From an uncultured virus (IMG/VR IMGVR_UViG_3300043466_001742) (lineage: Duplodnaviria > Heunggongvirae > Uroviricota > Caudoviricetes), in the IMG/VR virus record IMGVR_UViG_3300043466_001742, positions 54,096 through 74,095 of that record: a DNA stretch of 20,000 nucleotides. One strand, written 5' to 3'. A program made the position numbers and the translations under genes. Below the pieces are notes generated by a model. That model did no database searches. It had not been told where the DNA came from and worked only from the letters and a program-made list of their open reading frames with translations. Positions 2,671 to 20,000 of this stretch are shown here, in pieces (position 1 is the stretch's first letter; each line of letters opens with the position of its first letter).

Positions 2671-3612
2671 ATGAATGGTGAAACATATTACGACATTTTA
2701 GGTGTTGCTGAAACCGCGACACAAGACGACATAAAAAAAGCATATAGAAAACTTGCAAAAGAAAATCATCCAGATAAAGGTGGAAATGAGGATGTTTTTA
2801 AAAAGATTTCTGCGGCCTATGATACTATTGGTGATGAACAAAAAAGACAACAATATGATATGGAAAGAAAGAATCCATTTGCCGGTATGGGTGGTGGTTT
2901 CGGTTCTTCAATGAGTGACTTATTTAATAGTGTTTTTGGTGCTGGAAGACAACAAAGACAACAACCAAGAACTCACACAACAAATCTTACAATATCTATT
3001 GGTGCTGTAGAATCTTTTTTGGGTAAAACTAAAACAATCACATATCAAAGAAAAACAGTGTGTGAACCTTGTAACGGTAGTGGGGGTGATAGTCAAACTT
3101 GTTCAACCTGCCACGGACAAGGTCAGGTCGTAAGACAAGTCGGATCAAATATGTTTATACAAATGGTTCAAATGCAATGTCCAACCTGTATGGGTTCTGG
3201 AAAAATAATGATAAACGCTTGCCATTCCTGTGGTGGTCAAGGAACAAAAGATGAAATTAAAAATGTTGATATTAAATTACCACATGGGGCTGATGACGGT
3301 CAGTTTTTAAGATTACAAGGACAAGGTGATTTTAGAAACGGAATTTTTGGTGATTTAATTTTGAGAATACAAGTGGATAAAGAAAATAACTTTGAAAAAT
3401 TCGGAAACCATTTAGTTTATAATTGTTATTTTACACTTAAAGATCTGGAAAAGGATAGTTTTGAAATCCCACATCCGGACGGATCAATGACAATCAAGTT
3501 TCCAAAGAATATTGACACATCAAAACCTTTAAGAGTTAAAGGAAAGGGATTTAGAATTGAAAATGGGGGTGATTTAATGATAAATCAATTTTTGAGATAC
3601 GAAAGAAATTAG
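2671..3612 (+). CDS. dnaJ: DnaJ (class A) co-chaperone
   Basis: J-domain YYDILGV...IKKAYRKLAKENHPDK, G/F-rich linker, four CxxCxGxG motifs (CEPCNGSG, CSTCHGQG, CPTCMGSG, CHSCGGQG), C-terminal GDL and LRVKGKG motifs. Confidence 0.97.
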   Translation: MNGETYYDILGVAETATQDDIKKAYRKLAKENHPDKGGNEDVFKKISAAYDTIGDEQKRQQYDMERKNPFAGMGGGFGSSMSDLFNSVFGAGRQQRQQPRTHTTNLTISIGAVESFLGKTKTITYQRKTVCEPCNGSGGDSQTCSTCHGQGQVVRQVGSNMFIQMVQMQCPTCMGSGKIMINACHSCGGQGTKDEIKNVDIKLPHGADDGQFLRLQGQGDFRNGIFGDLILRIQVDKENNFEKFGNHLVYNCYFTLKDLEKDSFEIPHPDGSMTIKFPKNIDTSKPLRVKGKGFRIENGGDLMINQFLRYERN

Positions 3613-6929: not shown

Positions 6930-7592
6930 ATGACTAATCTTGGAAAAATATATAAAATAAAAAATTTAGTAAACCAAAAAGAATATGTTGGTTGTACTGT
7001 ATCAACACTAAAGAAAAGATTTGAAGAACATATTTTTAGGTGTACGAAAAGTGATTCTAACACAAAATTATGTAATTCGGTTAGAAAATATGGTTCTGAT
7101 AAATTTATGATAGAATTAATTGAGGAATGTGAGTTGTCAAGTATTTATGAAAGAGAAAAATTTTACATTAATGAAATGAAAACATTTGATTCTGGACTAA
7201 ACTCAACAATTGGTGGTGAAGGTTGTTTAGGTTATAAACATAGTAAAGAAATTCGTGAAAAAATATCAAAATTGATAAAAGAAGGAAAATCACATAAAAA
7301 TAAAACATATGATGTTATATATGGTGAACGAAGTATTGAGGAGAAAAAAAATAGACAAGAATCTGTTAAGAAAAGTTGGGAAACTATGACGGAAGATGAT
7401 AGAAATGAAAGAGTTGAAAATATTAGAAAAGCAAGACAAAAAAATTCAAAATATGGTGTTGAGTTAATAAAAGAAGTTAAAGAAAAATTAAAAAATGGGA
7501 TAAAAGTTCCTCAACTTATCAAGGAATACCCAAATATGAAAAGTCATATTCTTTATGACATAAAAAATAATAGAAGATGGAAAAACATTTAG
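6930..7592 (+). CDS. free-standing GIY-YIG (Seg-like) homing endonuclease
   Basis: KIYKIKNLVNQKEYVGCT (GIY..YIG variant), conserved R..EH, EREKFYI, GLNSTIGGEG, then NUMOD3-like GYKHSKEIREKIS and an HTH-like C-terminus. Confidence 0.9.
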   Translation: MTNLGKIYKIKNLVNQKEYVGCTVSTLKKRFEEHIFRCTKSDSNTKLCNSVRKYGSDKFMIELIEECELSSIYEREKFYINEMKTFDSGLNSTIGGEGCLGYKHSKEIREKISKLIKEGKSHKNKTYDVIYGERSIEEKKNRQESVKKSWETMTEDDRNERVENIRKARQKNSKYGVELIKEVKEKLKNGIKVPQLIKEYPNMKSHILYDIKNNRRWKNI

Positions 7593-13917: not shown

Positions 13918-13946
13918 GTTTTATATCAAAAAGTTCATTATATTTG
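13915..13946 (+). promoter_or_regulatory. Bacteroidota primary-sigma promoter
   Basis: TTTG 13915-13918, N20, TATATTTG 13939-13946. Confidence 0.75.
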
Positions 13947-13950
13947 TAAT

Positions 13951-14310: not shown

Positions 14311-14339
14311 GTTTTTATAAGATATTTTTTTTAATTTTG
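14308..14339 (+). promoter_or_regulatory. Bacteroidota primary-sigma promoter
   Basis: CTTG 14308-14311, N20, TAATTTTG 14332-14339. Confidence 0.6.
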
Positions 14340-14343
14340 TTTT

Positions 14344-14736
14344 ATGGAAAAAATACTTGTGATATGCCGCGGGATTTGTGGTGCTGGAAAATCAACATTT
14401 GCTAAAACTTTAGGTGGAAAACATTATGAAGCTGATATGTATTTTATTGATCCAAATACCGGTGAATATAAATTTGATGGGACAAAAATTAAAAATGCTC
14501 ATACTTGGTGTTTAGATAAGGTTAAAACCGATATGGCCGTTGCTCGTGAAAAAATTGTTGTCTCAAACACCTTTACACAAGAATGGGAGATGACACCATA
14601 TTTTGATTTAGCAAAAGAATTTGGATATAAAGTTTTTACTATAATTGTTGAAAATCGTCACGGAAATACCAACGAACACAATGTTCCAGAAGATAAGATA
14701 GAACAAATGAAAAATCGTTTTAGTATAAAATTATGA
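14344..14736 (+). CDS. P-loop kinase (AAA_33 / polynucleotide-kinase-like)
   Basis: Walker A RGICGAGKSTFA; EADMYF, VVSNTF, HNVP..I..M..RF. Confidence 0.88.
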   Translation: MEKILVICRGICGAGKSTFAKTLGGKHYEADMYFIDPNTGEYKFDGTKIKNAHTWCLDKVKTDMAVAREKIVVSNTFTQEWEMTPYFDLAKEFGYKVFTIIVENRHGNTNEHNVPEDKIEQMKNRFSIKL

Positions 14737-15695
14737 GTAGATTAGACAGATTAAAAGAACAACATCCGGATTTGAACATATCACTAATTGATATTATTTC
14801 ACATTTGGATCCAACGGATTCTTACAAATATACAGAGTTCTTAATTAAGAATTTTAAAAGAGATAGTGATTATTATAGTTCTAACAAAGATGAATTTATG
14901 GGATATATGGGTATATTCCTATTTGGTTCCGGTGAGGTTGAAACTCTAAATGAATTTGAAAGACATTCAAAGGCAAATAGAATTAAAATTAAAGATATTA
15001 GTCAATACAAAAATTTTTTAGAATTAAACGAAGCCGTTAAAGTCGCCGAAGAAATTGAAAACAGAAAAAAAATTGAAAAAGAAATATTAAATATTCACGA
15101 AGATGAAACCTGGTTTATTCTAACACCATTAAGTTTTGAAGCATCTAAAGTATATGGTACAAACACAAAATGGTGTGTAACACAAGAAAAATATTGGAAT
15201 CAATATTTAACAACACATAGGTTGATTTATGTTTTAAATAAAAAAACGGATACAAAAATCGCATTCTCAAGAGAGTTTAGAAATGAAAAGTTCCAAGCTT
15301 GGGATCAACAAGATAGAGAAGTTGATCCAATGTTTATTGACTTTATTCCGGATGAATTGTTTTTAAAAATTAGAAAAGAACTACAAAGGGATAAGACAAC
15401 TGGAGATTTAATTGGTTGGGGTGATAATGTGAAAAGTGTAAGAAAAATAGCTGACTACCCAATTAGTGATAGAATATTAACAAATGATCCACATTTTTAT
15501 GGACATACCATATCTGGAAACGCGAATTATGGGGATATTGTTATAAGTAATCCTCAACCGAGTACAACTGGAAATATCCAACTTGGTAGGATTAAAGAAT
15601 TGTTAGGACTATCGAGTGCAACGATAGGATTAAATAATACCATAGATTATAATTATTTAGATGAAGATTATAATTATTTAGATGATTTACCTTAA
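14733..15695 (+). CDS. hypothetical protein with 'YG..TKWC' domain
   Basis: ATGA overlap with the kinase; KDISQY..F.EL and P.SFEAS..YG.NTKWCVT motifs; low-complexity C-tail. Confidence 0.85.
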   Translation: MSRLDRLKEQHPDLNISLIDIISHLDPTDSYKYTEFLIKNFKRDSDYYSSNKDEFMGYMGIFLFGSGEVETLNEFERHSKANRIKIKDISQYKNFLELNEAVKVAEEIENRKKIEKEILNIHEDETWFILTPLSFEASKVYGTNTKWCVTQEKYWNQYLTTHRLIYVLNKKTDTKIAFSREFRNEKFQAWDQQDREVDPMFIDFIPDELFLKIRKELQRDKTTGDLIGWGDNVKSVRKIADYPISDRILTNDPHFYGHTISGNANYGDIVISNPQPSTTGNIQLGRIKELLGLSSATIGLNNTIDYNYLDEDYNYLDDLP

Positions 15696-15706
15696 AGATA
15701 AAAACT

Positions 15707-16360
15707 ATGAAATTTAAAACATTAGAAACAATAGGAAAAGTGTTTATAGTGAGCGATACACATTTCGGACACCAAAATATTTGTCGTGGTGTGACGAATT
15801 GGAGAACTCAAGATGGAAAAATTCCAGTTGATTCAACAAGAGATTTTCAAACTATCGAGCAGATGAACCAACGATTGGTAGATGGAATTAACAATATGGT
15901 GGGTCAGGACGATACATTGATTATGTTAGGTGATGTTTCATTTGGTGGGTTTGAGAATATTGGTATTTTCTTAGAAAGATTGATTTGTAAAAACATTCAT
16001 CTAATACTTGGTAATCACGACCAACATATAGTTAATAACAAAGAAAATATCCAATCAAGATTTTTAAGTGTAAATCACTACTTGGAAGTTAGAATAAATG
16101 ACAGAAACTTTGTTTTATGTCATTATCCATTACAAAGTTGGAATGGTCTTAACAAAGGTGTTATCCATTTACACGGACACTCACACCTTGGACGAGAAGC
16201 CAAATTCGGTAATGGTAAAAAAATGGATGTTGGTGTTGATGGAAATGGATTGGACCCATATAGTATTGATGAAATAATCAAAATTATGGATAAAAGACCA
16301 GTTGGGTCCGATATGTCTGGAGATCACCACCTGGATGATTTAGTTGGTGTTGTTGGATAA
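15707..16360 (+). CDS. calcineurin-like metallophosphoesterase
   Basis: SDTHFGH, LGDV, LGNHD, CHYP, LHGHSH, DVGVD motifs. Confidence 0.93.
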   Translation: MKFKTLETIGKVFIVSDTHFGHQNICRGVTNWRTQDGKIPVDSTRDFQTIEQMNQRLVDGINNMVGQDDTLIMLGDVSFGGFENIGIFLERLICKNIHLILGNHDQHIVNNKENIQSRFLSVNHYLEVRINDRNFVLCHYPLQSWNGLNKGVIHLHGHSHLGREAKFGNGKKMDVGVDGNGLDPYSIDEIIKIMDKRPVGSDMSGDHHLDDLVGVVG

Positions 16361-16386: not shown

Positions 16387-17616
16387 ATGAAAATCCTAAT
16401 AACCGAAAATCAATTAAGACTAATCACAGAAGCTGTTGGTGTTCCAAAAGGAATTATGGAAGCGGCCGAAGAACTATATAGTATTGTTCTAGAAAAGTTA
16501 AAATCAATAAATGAAAATGATATAGAATACGAATTTGATATTGAAGATAAAGAATTACAAATTTCAGATATAACAATAGATCATATCAAAGTTATAGTTG
16601 AAATCCAAGAAGTTGAAGATTACGATGGAAAACCAGAAATAGCGGCGATGGGTGTCTCAAACGAATTTATTTTTGATAATGCTATACTCATGCAGATTTC
16701 ACCGGTAAATAAAACTTTAATATTACACATTAATTTTGTTGCGGCAGAAATGTGGGAACCAGAGGAAATATTAGAAAAATTCCAAGAAGATGAAGCACAT
16801 ACAGTTTCAGTTATGGCTCACGAATTAAAACACAAATACGATAGAACAAAAAAAACAAAAGGATTCGTAGGCGATCTTGCCGATTACCAGGCGTACTCAT
16901 CAGGTAGATTAAATTTTGGAATACCAATCTTAAATAAGTTTATGAGATACAGTTATTTTATTCAAATGACCGAAAATCTGGTAAGACCAACTGAGATCTC
17001 AACTAGAATGTTAAAGAAAGGTATTACAAAAGAACAGTTTTATGATTTTATAACAAATGATACGGCATATAAAGAATTACAAGATATTAAAAATTTTTCA
17101 TTTGATTATTTGATTGAAAGTTTGTATAATGAAATGGAAAGGGTTGATAGATTATTAGAACACGCTGGAATGGAAACAAATGTTGATGATGAAACAAAAA
17201 TAAAAATGGTGCTTAGATTGGTATATGTTAATTTAGTAAATACTAAAGTTGAAAATTTTGATAATTATTTTTATTCACAACGAGAAAAGATTAACAGTAT
17301 GTTTGATGGGTTTATGGCACAACTATTGGGTGGTGGAGAGAAAATAAATCCAAATAAAGAAAAAGTTAGGAATAAATTTATAAATCATATAACCAAATAC
17401 CAAAATAGAGAGTTGGATTTCTTCAAAGACGAATGTGAAAGATTTAATTATGTTGCAACAAAACTTATGAAAAAAATATCAAAAATTTATTCATTGATTC
17501 CGGATGAAAAGGAACAAACAAATGAATCAATATTAGATTGGGATCTACACCAGAAACTTATGGAAAAAAAGTATGGTAAAAGACCAATTCAAACTTCCTA
17601 CAATTTCAAAAAATAG
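16387..17616 (+). CDS. leader-bearing protein with HExxH (zincin-like) motif
   Basis: MKILITENQLRLITE leader; VMAHELKHKYD (HExxH at 16819-16833); TATTTATT at 16376-16383. Confidence 0.8.
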   Translation: MKILITENQLRLITEAVGVPKGIMEAAEELYSIVLEKLKSINENDIEYEFDIEDKELQISDITIDHIKVIVEIQEVEDYDGKPEIAAMGVSNEFIFDNAILMQISPVNKTLILHINFVAAEMWEPEEILEKFQEDEAHTVSVMAHELKHKYDRTKKTKGFVGDLADYQAYSSGRLNFGIPILNKFMRYSYFIQMTENLVRPTEISTRMLKKGITKEQFYDFITNDTAYKELQDIKNFSFDYLIESLYNEMERVDRLLEHAGMETNVDDETKIKMVLRLVYVNLVNTKVENFDNYFYSQREKINSMFDGFMAQLLGGGEKINPNKEKVRNKFINHITKYQNRELDFFKDECERFNYVATKLMKKISKIYSLIPDEKEQTNESILDWDLHQKLMEKKYGKRPIQTSYNFKK

Positions 17617-17647
17617 TTTGGTAATCTGATTTTTTTCTATATCTTTG
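17617..17647 (+). promoter_or_regulatory. Bacteroidota primary-sigma promoter
   Basis: TTTG 17617-17620, N19, TATCTTTG 17640-17647. Confidence 0.8.
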
Positions 17648-17651
17648 TGAT

Positions 17652-17885
17652 ATGGAAAATAAAACATTAGGTCAATTATTGAAGGGTAAAACATCTGGTG
17701 TCTTTGTTAATGATAAAGACGAACATTGTTATGTTGGTTCATATTATACTGGTAATAAAAGAAAGTTTCAAATCATATTTTCAAAAGGACTTAATGATAT
17801 AGCAACAAAACCAGCAATAAACTCAACTTCTGAAAAAAGAGTGTTGAAGTTTTTAAGTTCTGAAAACTTTGTATTAGTTGATTAA
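17652..17885 (+). CDS. hypothetical protein (77 aa)
   Basis: ATG 4 nt after the -7 box; TAATG coupling to the next gene. Confidence 0.75.
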   Translation: MENKTLGQLLKGKTSGVFVNDKDEHCYVGSYYTGNKRKFQIIFSKGLNDIATKPAINSTSEKRVLKFLSSENFVLVD

Positions 17886-18055
17886 TGAAAAAACCCTGTA
17901 AAGAATGTCCTCACTTTATTCGTAATCGTCATAATGATATGATTGTGGAGTTCGGTAAAAGAACCGGAAAGAAACACAATTGTCATATGACAGAAGGAAA
18001 AAAAGATTTGTGGAATGTAACGGATAAGAAACTTGAATGTTATGGAAGTAAATAA
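17885..18055 (+). CDS. Cys/His-rich putative metal-binding micro-protein, copy 1 (56 aa; not in ORF track)
   Basis: MKKPCKECPHFIRNRHNDMIVEFGKRTGKKHNCHMTEGKKDLWNVTDKKLECYGSK; mostly synonymous divergence from copy 2. Confidence 0.88.
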   Translation: MKKPCKECPHFIRNRHNDMIVEFGKRTGKKHNCHMTEGKKDLWNVTDKKLECYGSK

Positions 18056-18146
18056 AACATATTTAGGGGATTGTTTAAAAGTGATGAAATCTATTCCCGA
18101 TGGTAGGATTTGGACTAAAATAAAGCTTCTGAATATTTATATATAA
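18042..18146 (+). pseudogene. N-terminal fragment of an N4C/N6A (beta-class) DNA methyltransferase
   Basis: MEVNKTYLGDCLKVMKSIPDG matches the typical N-terminus (NKIYxGDCLxxMKxIPDxSVDLxxxDPPY) but breaks off before the DPPY motif. Confidence 0.75.
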
Positions 18147-18154
18147 AGAAAACG

Positions 18155-18688
18155 ATGAAAGATTTGAAACAATTTATTAAAACTACGATAAGAGATTTCT
18201 TGAATGAGAATAAAAACATATCACAAAGAATTGATAATGCCTTAGATTGGATGAATAAGTACGATATAAAAATATCTGATAAATCATTTCAAAATTATGT
18301 TGATTATACCAATAAACATCTTCATAAAATTGAAAGTTTAGTTAACAAAATAAACAAAGAAGGATATATATGGACTTCTGACTTACCTATGTTTTTTACA
18401 ACAACATTAGATGATTTAGAAAACAATAGTACTGATTTAGGTGAAATAAATATATATAAACAAAAGGTGGAAATTTTTTATAAATATACTCACGTTGGTA
18501 ATAATCCTTACGAGAAAGTATCTGATAGATATAAGGTTATTTATAAAAATGAAAATAGTAGAGATATTACAGATGAAATAAGTGGTGAAGAATTAATTGA
18601 ATTGTTAGAAAAAAATGTTATTATGACCGAGCAAGGTATAATAGGATTGTCTAAAGAAAGTGTTAAAAAATACATTCAAAATTTATAA
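18155..18688 (+). CDS. leader-bearing hypothetical protein (177 aa)
   Basis: MKDLKQFIKTTIRDFLNE leader; TATTTATA at 18134-18141. Confidence 0.85.
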   Translation: MKDLKQFIKTTIRDFLNENKNISQRIDNALDWMNKYDIKISDKSFQNYVDYTNKHLHKIESLVNKINKEGYIWTSDLPMFFTTTLDDLENNSTDLGEINIYKQKVEIFYKYTHVGNNPYEKVSDRYKVIYKNENSRDITDEISGEELIELLEKNVIMTEQGIIGLSKESVKKYIQNL

Positions 18689-18725
18689 AGTGCGTTGGAT
18701 TTTTCTTTTAAAATTTTCAACTGAA

Positions 18726-18941
18726 ATGTTGATTAGAACGATGAACGGAACACTTAAAAAATATTTAGGTGAAAATTACCACATACACCAATTAAGACAT
18801 TCTTGCTTCACAAATCTTTTAGAGTCTGGAACTGATCTTCGTTTGATTCAGAAAATTGCGGGTCATACTAATGTTAAAACTACTGAAATATATACTCATG
18901 TTTCAAATCAAATGTTAAGTAAAGTAAAATTACCAATTTAA
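18726..18941 (+). pseudogene. C-terminal fragment of a tyrosine recombinase (XerD / integron-integrase-like)
   Basis: HQLRHSCFTNLLESGTDLRLIQKIAGHTNVKTTEIYTHVS keeps HxxR, the second H and the catalytic Y; the N-terminal domain and first catalytic Arg are absent. Confidence 0.88.
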
Positions 18942-18943
18942 TA

Positions 18944-18975
18944 TTTGTTTAATTCAAATTAGTTTCTTACCTTTG
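18944..18975 (+). promoter_or_regulatory. Bacteroidota primary-sigma promoter
   Basis: TTTG 18944-18947, N20, TACCTTTG 18968-18975. Confidence 0.8.
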
Positions 18976-18979
18976 TAAG

Positions 18980-19156
18980 GTGAAAAAACCTTGTAAAGAA
19001 TGTCCCCACTTCATTCGTAATCGTCACAACGATACTATTGTTGATTTTGCTGAGAGAACCGGTAAGAAACACAATTGTCATATGACAGAGGGAAAAAAAG
19101 ATTTGTGGAATGTAACTAATAAAAATTTGGAATGTTATGGAAGTAAAAGAAAGTAG
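18980..19156 (+). CDS. Cys/His-rich putative metal-binding micro-protein, copy 2 (58 aa, GTG start; not in ORF track)
   Basis: MKKPCKECPHFIRNRHNDTIVDFAERTGKKHNCHMTEGKKDLWNVTNKNLECYGSKRK. Confidence 0.88.
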   Translation: MKKPCKECPHFIRNRHNDTIVDFAERTGKKHNCHMTEGKKDLWNVTNKNLECYGSKRK

Positions 19157-19448
19157 ATTAAAAAAAATTAAAAGTAGATTATTATTTTTTATAAAGTTGG
19201 TAATACCCTTTTATGTTATTAGGATTAAAAAAATTTTAACAACAGGAAAAGATATAGAAAAACTTCCACCACCAACAAAAGGGTATGGTAGAATATACTT
19301 TTTTGAACCTGATGAGAATGGGAATTTTTGGGCGAGACATCACGAAATGCCTTTATATCTTGCGGATAAATTTAACAAAGAATATAAAGATAAATTAGTT
19401 GGTTTAACTAGAGAAGAAATTGTTGAATGGATTATAAAAAATAAATAA
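19137..19448 (+). CDS. hypothetical protein (103 aa) bounded by junction repeats
   Basis: Starts inside junction copy 2 and ends inside junction copy 3; short hydrophobic stretch near the N-terminus. Confidence 0.75.
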   Translation: MEVKESRLKKIKSRLLFFIKLVIPFYVIRIKKILTTGKDIEKLPPPTKGYGRIYFFEPDENGNFWARHHEMPLYLADKFNKEYKDKLVGLTREEIVEWIIKNK

Positions 19449-19458
19449 TTAGAATGTT

Positions 19459-19989
19459 ATGGAGGTAAAACAGACAGCAGTAGAATGGTTGGTTGAACAA
19501 TTAGATGGCGAAAGACATTTAACAGAAAATGAAATAAAACGACTTATTCAACAAGCCAAAGAAATGGATGATGAGTTTTTAGAAAAACTTAAAGACTTTG
19601 ATAATTGGAGAGAATGGAAAAATTCTAGTATGAAAACAAAAGAAACTAAATTTGGAACTTATATGGAAACAGAAAGACCAACAAAACTAACCGGTGATAA
19701 AATCACAAGGTTTGTTGAAAGATTGAAAAAAATTGGTATTGACGTAAAACTATCAGGAAACTTTCCTTGGGTTTATATTGATGAAATCTGTGGTATAAGA
19801 GTAACAGAAAAATTTCTAGCAAACCACGGATTTACTTTGATATTTCTTCCTGGTAGAAATGATAGTCCAGTGTCTGAATTTACGGACATTACAGAGATAT
19901 TCAAACTTATACGAAGGTATTCAAGAGAAGCTAGATTAACACAAATGATGAAAGACGACGAAGAAAATGGATTATATGAAGAAATTTAA
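19459..19989 (+). CDS. mosaic hypothetical protein (KQTAVEWL..QAKEM module fused to an NFPWVY domain)
   Basis: 176 aa ORF starting at junction copy 3, with an internal start-like site at 19630. Confidence 0.75.
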   Translation: MEVKQTAVEWLVEQLDGERHLTENEIKRLIQQAKEMDDEFLEKLKDFDNWREWKNSSMKTKETKFGTYMETERPTKLTGDKITRFVERLKKIGIDVKLSGNFPWVYIDEICGIRVTEKFLANHGFTLIFLPGRNDSPVSEFTDITEIFKLIRRYSREARLTQMMKDDEENGLYEEI

Positions 19990-20000
19990 ACTCTTTTTAG

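Follow-up and report, generated by a model that had tools for sequence, protein, structure and literature searches.

The array and its repeated junction

We have analysed a locus of an uncultured tailed phage (Caudoviricetes; IMG/VR record IMGVR_UViG_3300043466_001742), at which a very short gene, hereafter called the micro-gene, is followed by genes that differ from one relative to the next. The window, by which we mean the whole stretch of DNA that was analysed, is 20,000 nucleotides (nt) long and corresponds to the final 20 kb of a viral record of 74,095 bases, with 30% G+C and an estimated completeness of 25%. It contains two full copies of the micro-gene, M1 and M2, which form a 172-nt direct repeat with 87% identity, and a short remnant of a third copy, arranged with other open reading frames (ORFs) as listed in Table 1.

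The array is marked by an 18-mer, GAATGTTATGGARGTAAA, found on the + strand at 18035, 19130 and 19452, where 0.01 copies would be expected; three or more copies were present in none of 200 shuffled sequences, and a scan of the window allowing up to 2 mismatches returned no sites beyond these three. The 18-mer is the 3' end of the micro-gene, carried by the two full copies and by the short remnant. The micro-gene ending ..Cys-Tyr-Gly is encoded as TGT TAT GGN, and its codons for Tyr-Gly (TAT GGN) yield the embedded ATG when read in frame +2. At 18042, 19137 and 19459 this ATG opens each time a different, unrelated ORF, exactly as the original prediction had it. Over the whole 74,095-base record the 18-mer occurs at the same three positions only. 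Four records of 224-281 kb carry the junction motif (1-2 copies) only at the micro-gene locus, with one micro-gene per record and one-mismatch matches elsewhere at control level. The three copies are therefore real, but the motif is limited to one locus.

The third copy had been proposed to extend to 42 nt, so that ORF 19137-19448 would be bracketed by direct repeats. The identity holds (34/42 with copy 2), but the left 18-20 nt of the match (19428-19448) are the native C-terminus of the ORF itself, because a homologue in another viral contig (L087) has the same ...EWIIKNK-stop ending with no micro-gene nearby. From the alignment, we take 19449-19470 (22 nt) as the secure remnant, up to about 32 nt if the A-rich microhomology is counted; the stretch 19428-19448 may have provided the microhomology for the join. 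The Leu codon at the junction is CTT in M1, TTG in M2 and TTA in the remnant (as in L067 and L037), and since these are typical of three lineages, three lineages contributed to the array. A fourth, degenerate start noticed at 19630 is also real: it is the own start region of a conserved gene, the anchor, now internal to a fused ORF.

Table 1. Features of the array, followed by one gene lying upstream of it in the window
Feature	Position	Strand	Remarks
Left-flank gene, 409 aa	16387..17616	+	no family
-7 box	17640-17647	+	TATCTTTG
77-aa ORF	17652-17885	+	stop overlaps M1 start
Micro-gene copy 1 (M1), 56 aa	17885..18055	+	invariant C5, C8, H31, C33, H34, C52
1095-nt block absent from near-identical phages	17912..19006	+	boundaries within a 5-nt interval, micro-gene nt 28-32
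Junction copy 1	18035..18052	+	embedded ATG at 18042
Putative N-terminal fragment of N6/N4-type DNA methyltransferase (weak evidence)	18042..18146	+	~21 aa recognisable, then unrelated residues
177-aa ORFan cargo	18155..18688	+	18-aa leader
Tyrosine recombinase C-terminal remnant	18660..18941	+	PF00589, E 8e-17, profile positions 94-171 of 172
Predicted M2 promoter, Bacteroidota-type	18944..18979	+	TTTG 18944-18947, 20-nt spacer, TACCTTTG 18968-18975, 4 nt, GTG
Micro-gene copy 2 (M2), 58 aa	18980..19156	+	GTG start
Junction copy 2	19130..19147	+	embedded ATG at 19137
103-aa ORFan cargo	19137..19448	+
Third-lineage micro-gene 3' remnant	19449..19470	+	TTA-Leu, L067/L037 type; ATG at 19459
Fused 176-aa ORF	19459..19989	+	'MEVKQT' module 19459-19629 in frame with anchor 19630-19989 (phrog_38683)
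Free-standing GIY-YIG-type homing endonuclease gene	6930-7592		phrog_7168, E 2.4e-24; 11 kb upstream of array

Genes following the micro-gene in related phages

A scan of viral contigs with M1 yielded 217 relatives, the best 80 of which were fetched and compared as loci numbered with the letter L. The micro-gene is present at all 80 loci and keeps its position; the embedded ATG is found at 77 of them. One micro-gene copy lies within about 4 kb at 77/80 loci, and an extra partial 3' copy was seen in L017, L067 and L069. The order of the locus is: left-flank gene, variable gap, micro-gene, variable insert and anchor, the core of which corresponds to phrog_38683. The anchor was found at 67/80 loci, separated from the micro-gene by 1 nt (15 loci), 10 nt (12), a gap that could not be scored (2) or about 170-1650 nt (38).

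In 32 of the 80 loci the embedded ATG runs into the anchor (MEVKTKFGTY), three times with the N-terminal 'MEVKQT' extension. This base state reads ..TGTTATGGAAGTAAAAACTAAATTTGG, the start of the anchor overlapping the end of the micro-gene, and 'MEVK' is therefore the anchor's own N-terminus. At another 36 loci the embedded ATG opens one of 7 unrelated families (10, 9, 5, 4, 4, 2 and 2 loci). Tabulation of the homologues thus gave at least seven unrelated cargo families at the same junction and embedded ATG, and bears out the proposal of a hotspot for gene capture or shuffling. Eight cargo proteins were scanned: seven gave no PHROG or Pfam match above cut-off, the eighth is a DUF4326 protein (L015). 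A putative promoter within the sequence encoding TKFGTY (ACTAAATTTGG, containing TAAATTTG) was considered and rejected, since synonymous variants break the box (as does TCAAAATTCGG of L015) and lengths differ by multiples of 3.

The left junctions of the inserts are sharp: sequences diverge no more than 1-2 nt after micro-gene codon 56 in at least nine different continuations. Moreover, four unrelated families have an own in-frame ATG at codon 5, exactly 12 nt past the embedded one (GTARAA followed by ATG, in L005, L016, L017/L057 and L062). This codon is replaced in the 103-aa ORF of the window and in L040. Because it is kept in some members and replaced in others, we infer that cargo arrived with its own start and later came to rely on the embedded ATG. 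Homologues of the 103-aa ORF follow the micro-gene in L005, L010, L035 and L039 (49-50% amino acid identity), and a closer one (77%) lies in L087 at another locus, with no micro-gene and without the MEVKESR prefix, adjoining genes whose counterparts in relatives are located some 20-30 kb away from the micro-gene. A cargo family is thus found also elsewhere without the MEVK prefix, as expected if cargo is mobile.

The micro-gene had been described as promoter-proximal; 38 of 82 copies lie 3-6 nt behind a sequence motif of the Bacteroidota -7 type, TAnnTTTG. The complete pattern (TTTG, about 20 nt, TAnnTTTG, 4 nt, start codon) precedes M2 and several other genes, and the predicted M2 promoter shares 96.6% identity with its L037 counterpart, also in front of the micro-gene, along 58 nt. 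Boxes 4-6 nt before start codons were seen at 13936-13950, 14329-14343, 17640-17651 and 18968-18979, and also in a relative (G000:C1:6551-6566). According to the part of the literature considered here, TAnnTTTG is the promoter consensus of Bacteroidota, with transcription starting 4-5 nt past the -7 element (PMC6847099). The spacing between boxes and start codons therefore makes leaderless transcripts likely, and the promoter type suggests a Bacteroidota host.

Recombination within the micro-gene

Three records (L084, L085 and L086) match the window at 1343/1343 nt to the left of the micro-gene and lack the 1095 nt present between its two copies in the window. Their single micro-gene equals M1 up to nt 32 and M2 from nt 28 onwards, and is followed by the 103-aa ORF. 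A contig of a public sequencing run from another study (X6), at a depth of 25, likewise joins 17911 to 19007, with an ambiguity of 5 nt. A chimeric single micro-gene of this kind bears the mark of homologous recombination inside the gene. The presence/absence polymorphism to be expected of cassettes is thus observed, in a block that differs between near-identical phages and is bounded by micro-gene copies. Recombination at the array, as originally predicted, is borne out, but the documented crossover falls at nt 28-32 of the micro-gene and not in the 18-mer.

To the right of the block, the window and L085 show no differences over 19007-19556, two at 19557 and 19561, and 38 over 19670-19983. 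Identity drops sharply within 19562-19669, from 100% to about 88%, and this switch therefore places a second breakpoint in that interval, at the conserved 5' end of the anchor.

Reassortment of flanks is apparent also on a wider scale. Among 83 micro-gene copies, 33 combinations of 21 upstream with 18 downstream classes are seen, including one complete four-gamete quartet; six upstream classes pair with more than one downstream class, and eight downstream classes with more than one upstream class. Partial copies are found as well. In L067 and L069, 58 nt that are 100% identical to the 3' end of the resident micro-gene lie between a 76-aa 'MEVKQT' ORF and the anchor; the module is thus a separate ORF in these two loci and fused to the anchor in the window. 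The remnant in L017 is about 45 nt long. In L086 (1792-1860) the stop codon of the 103-aa ORF is replaced by AAA, and the ORF reads through the remnant (..WIIKNKKLECYGSKTDSSRMVG).

M1 and M2 differ by 0.76 synonymous (dS) and 0.057 nonsynonymous (dN) substitutions per site, with a dN/dS of 0.075. The nearest relatives of M1 are the copies of L006, L007, L011 and L012 (96.4% nt identity), those of M2 are in L082 (93.5%) and L037 (91.7%). Given the dS of 0.76, the pair is not a recent local duplication.

A probable hotspot of recombination and gene capture

The reading that we favour, with a probability of about 0.62, is that this is a single-locus hotspot of recombination and gene capture in a clade of large T4-like lake phages. 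The micro-gene, often the first gene behind a Bacteroidota-type promoter, would provide the platform; its embedded ATG would start the anchor in the base state, hence the overlap of the two genes. Being far better conserved than its flanks, the micro-gene would serve as portable homology, and homologous recombination within it would join different left and right flanks. Recombination between tandem copies would delete the intervening DNA, and in the opposite direction a circle with one copy would be inserted; the tandem-copy step is documented, because near-identical phages possess the chimeric single micro-gene.

New cargo would join directly behind the conserved core by illegitimate or microhomology-mediated joining, then use the embedded ATG and possibly lose its own start. 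Unequal exchange between genomes with different cargo would leave partial micro-gene 3' ends of 22-58 nt, and such remnants could give the following gene its start back, allow cargo to build up as an array and render it excisable once more. The tyrosine recombinase fragment is, in our view, cargo debris and not the engine. Two general models of phage module exchange, targeted at conserved boundaries or random joining followed by selection, are distinguished in the part of the literature at hand (PMC3233612); both seem to act here, targeted boundary exchange being shown by the chimera and random joining being needed for the first capture.

Several points weigh against this reading. The 1095-nt event fits equally well a deletion between M1 and M2 and the integration of a circle with one micro-gene. 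Only one complete four-gamete quartet was found among the 83 copies, and flank reassortment could partly reflect two independently variable flanks. A phage recombinase gene is weakly supported, the RecA family match in the phage being below cut-off (16-23 bits). At 12 of the 80 loci the embedded ATG is not used (it is ACG in three, and opens ORFs of 3-22 aa in nine), and its use at the others was read from ORFs alone. Homologous recombination leaves unexplained both the breakpoint shared within 1-2 nt by at least nine continuations and the 12-nt ATG spacing of four families. The 80 loci are the best M1 matches of 217, which biases them to close relatives, and many are near-duplicates. Finally, the comparison with public runs used assembled Logan contigs, not reads, none of which covers the array from end to end, since many strains come together in the micro-gene and unitigs are interrupted there.

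The precision of the left junctions could be accommodated by a bolder proposal, which we regard as improbable: promoter, micro-gene and embedded ATG would form a docking platform, an integrase-free analogue of an integron, with insertion targeted to one phosphodiester bond. Targeting might be due to a nuclease-induced break or to a replication template switch at the junction, and circles of cargo plus one micro-gene copy would be transferable between co-infecting phages. The nucleotide-exact left junction of the at least nine continuations, together with the 12-nt spacing in the four families, would be the footprint of such a process.

Alternative explanations

Of the explanations that compete with the hotspot, the one that survives best, although we hold it to be unlikely, is a passive conserved island: random illegitimate recombination, followed by selection for an intact micro-gene and an expressed anchor, with no role of the junction as a substrate or target of recombination. 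It corresponds to one of the two standard models, at least as these are outlined in the source cited above (PMC3233612). It would account for the fact that left-side homology between relatives ends exactly at the micro-gene start codon, as under selection alone, and for the many inserts whose right ends show no micro-gene remnant and are followed by a separate promoter and anchor start. The chimera of L084-L086, with its identical flanks, requires instead a homologous crossover inside the gene; the 58-nt remnant of L067/L069 is identical to the resident copy, and left breakpoints cluster tightly in all the continuations mentioned, all of which speak against mere selection.

Even less probable is targeted docking, in which a site-specific, integron-like recombinase or a sequence-specific nuclease acts at the junction on discrete cassettes. 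The nucleotide-precise breakpoints and the constant position of the cargo's own ATG in four unrelated families would be well explained in this way, and both a tyrosine recombinase fragment in the array and a GIY-YIG homing endonuclease gene upstream of it could be called upon. The fragment is certainly there, as originally noted, but it is the C-terminal part only, with 2 stops in the extended match and no full catalytic domain in one open frame, and its homologue in L015 (68.5% nt identity) has decayed too. No intact integrase was detected in the two relatives at least 96% complete, G001 (100%) and G002 (96%), both devoid of PF00589, and no cargo family matched a nuclease family. Repeat lengths vary (22, about 45, 58 and 172 nt). 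The three junctions, folded as 71 nt of the + strand, give -2.1, 0 and -1.0 kcal/mol (z-scores -0.38, +1.42 and +0.70); no inverted repeat was found at them, and no hairpin in these + strand folds. Since neither an intact integrase nor an attC-like hairpin was found, the integron-like recombination suggested at first fails.

An assembly artefact, in which co-occurring strains would have been merged via the micro-gene they have in common, appears very unlikely. Many strains do share the micro-gene within a sample: depth climbs to about 130-180 there, the flanks being at about 10, and unitigs break within the gene. Moreover, M1, block and M2 occur together in this record only, three other assemblies being single-copy. 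However, the longest exact match noted between M1 and M2 measures 26 nt. Contigs of run X1 (88% of sampled words) tile the block without difference at depths of 9.1, 9.9, 8.4, 12.9, 13.4 and 11.5, alike for left flank, block and right side, and the single-copy joint was not seen among the contigs of this run. The piece from M1 through the methyltransferase fragment to the 177-aa ORF recurs unchanged (18023-18704) in a run of another study, X2, and the part comprising 103-aa ORF, remnant and 'MEVKQT' module recurs in three independent assemblies. The same slot of L015 contains a related module, made of a leader of the 177-aa ORF type and a decayed integrase remnant. The 322-nt skip that excision of ORF 19137-19448 would produce is not among the joints listed for contigs of four runs, of which X2, X3 and X6 are partly uncovered, and no joint leading backwards, as mini-circles might leave, is listed either; as only contigs were compared, neither absence speaks for or against excision.

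That the micro-gene was recently duplicated in tandem at this locus and then decayed is hardly tenable, although 1.6 kb of DNA holds two full copies and one remnant in the same orientation, as M1 and M2 show a dS of 0.76 while the left flank is identical to that of other phages over 1343 nt, and each copy is closer to those of other contigs than to its neighbour.

Relation to known systems

As far as the excerpts of the two reports considered here describe it, the closest known system is that of the PeSL (promoter-early stem-loop) cassettes of T4-type phages, in which repeats flank ORFans, indels between relatives leave a chimeric repeat, and mini-circles form (PMC2839356, PMC4122927). Judged on the same excerpts, the likeness extends to small ORFans that lie between direct repeats in a variable part of a T4-like genome, and to close relatives differing by indels that leave one chimeric repeat (the window versus L084-L086; L067/L069 and L017). 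In both cases, recombination between repeats can excise, and in principle re-insert, an ORF, and the repeat supplies expression signals to whatever comes next. The PeSL repeat of those accounts is, however, a non-coding module of terminator stem-loop, early promoter and Shine-Dalgarno sequence, while here it is a protein-coding gene, or its 3' end, and forms no stem-loop; it would donate a start codon and 3-4 codons where PeSL donates a promoter, and it is confined to one locus, while PeSL copies are dispersed.

Exchange at conserved boundaries was reportedly put forward in original papers on lambdoid phages. Here too unrelated modules are exchanged at a short conserved sequence between genes; unlike in that model, to the extent that it is covered by the source used here (PMC3233612), the conserved element is a whole micro-gene overlapping the next start, and capture of new cargo still needs illegitimate joining.

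By analogy, the locus may also be likened to an integron: a promoter-proximal site behind which promoterless genes would accumulate as an array, expressed from the platform. An integron platform consists of intI, attI, attC and Pc, and integrons are said to occur in phages. In contrast to integrons, the present locus has no intact integrase and no attC-like folded sites, its repeats vary in length, and the crossover lies inside a coding gene. Morons of lambdoid phages are extra genes inserted between two conserved genes, as is the cargo described here, most of which, unlike morons, has no promoter or terminator of its own and would depend on the embedded ATG.

Acquisition and exchange of small accessory genes by phages are usually inferred from blurred mosaics, and whether exchange is targeted or random and then selected is still argued, at least in the section of the debate at hand (PMC3233612). 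The locus offers a clean natural case: hundreds of variants from lake metagenomes with the same slot and a nucleotide-exact junction, a crossover confined to a 5-nt interval, and one cargo family both docked and free. It indicates that a protein-coding micro-gene can do the job of the non-coding PeSL repeats of T4-type coliphages, and that a start codon donated to promoterless newcomers is a simple route to immediate expression of ORFans. Given a host, it would make the question of targeting versus selection testable by crosses.

The micro-gene and its product

In an alignment of 36 sequences, the six Cys and His residues given for M1 in Table 1 are among the invariant ones, and for this reason the micro-protein is suggested to be a small zinc-binding protein. 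A dN/dS of 0.06, obtained from 686 pairs of 39 distinct micro-gene sequences, indicates that the gene is under strong purifying selection. At E <= 0.01, 143 protein clusters match the micro-protein, the only name given being 'hypothetical protein', and matches in the ESM Atlas are viral hypothetical clusters only. No Pfam or PHROG family was found for it, no match among 50,697 phage records, and only a 10-residue match among 185,579 species genomes. Searches with an AlphaFold model (pLDDT 71) returned nothing at E <= 0.001 in Foldseek or at Z >= 2 in VIA. The best sequence-profile match in the PDB, haemoglobin (E 0.031), was taken as chance.

Short homologues (42-54 aa) looked at first like truncated forms, which we rejected, the ORFs having been called from the internal Met19. 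In L015 (2386-2748) the micro-gene is fused in frame to an acidic C-terminal extension of 60 aa, for a total of 120 aa; the DUF4326 gene in the cargo slot of this locus lies at 2830-3186. Twenty-two distant relatives in other phage contigs (L104-L125, CKECPW type, 54-70% amino acid identity) differ in their conserved tail, which is longer (..GRKEYE..), and in their neighbours, with no anchor or left-flank gene within 2.5 kb of the micro-gene. The junction is therefore specific to the clade of the window, and the micro-protein family is wider than the junction.

Other members of the array

The left-flank gene lies upstream of the micro-gene in most relatives, at variable distance and with 40-61% amino acid identity, and the 77-aa ORF precedes the micro-gene also in L067/L069 and L084-L086. 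The ORF at 18042-18146 had been described as a methyltransferase fragment. About 21 of its N-terminal residues do resemble methylases: 22 aa match phage gene N-termini at E 0.2-0.5, 14 of the 15 matches listed being annotated as methylases and one unannotated, and over 21 aa the fragment is 47.6% identical to the N-terminal end of a relative's PF01555 gene. The resemblance is weak, however, as the ORF has no Pfam match; it ends before the catalytic (D/S)PPY motif and so does not comprise the motif plus S-adenosylmethionine (AdoMet)-binding region that define PF01555. An exact search of viral contigs for the junction between micro-gene and methyltransferase fragment gave 0 matches.

The 18-aa leader of the 177-aa ORF, MKDLKQFIKTTIR(D/E)FLNE, is located behind a conserved AT-rich stretch (18127-18211 in the window, 3319-3399 in L015, and L088-L103). 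Leader and stretch are common to at least ten otherwise unrelated proteins of other viral contigs, one of which is a GNAT acetyltransferase (30 bits, over cut-off), while another has a weak PARP-domain match (E 2e-5, below cut-off). The prohead-protease site of T4 is (L/I)-x-E; the leader ends L-N-E, like this site, and complete relatives encode a T4-type prohead protease. It also resembles the capsid-targeting sequence of T4 internal proteins as presented in the part of the report drawn upon (PMC9026906). It is a possible capsid-targeting leader and may mark packaged, ejected proteins.

Source phage and neighbouring genes

The 74-kb record is a fragment of a T4-like lake phage of about 257 kb, which probably infects Bacteroidota. 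The L085 record is 257 kb long, has terminal repeats and is 100% complete by CheckV estimate. A blastn search of phage records with positions 17600-20000 gave no match.

Elsewhere in the window, a full-length phage DnaJ, with J domain, CXXCXGXG zinc domain and C-terminal domain, is encoded at 2671-3612. Three consecutive genes at 14344-16360, encoding a P-loop kinase-like ATPase (phrog_2071), a 320-aa ORF and a metallophosphoesterase (phrog_547), suggest a module for nucleic-acid repair or end healing.

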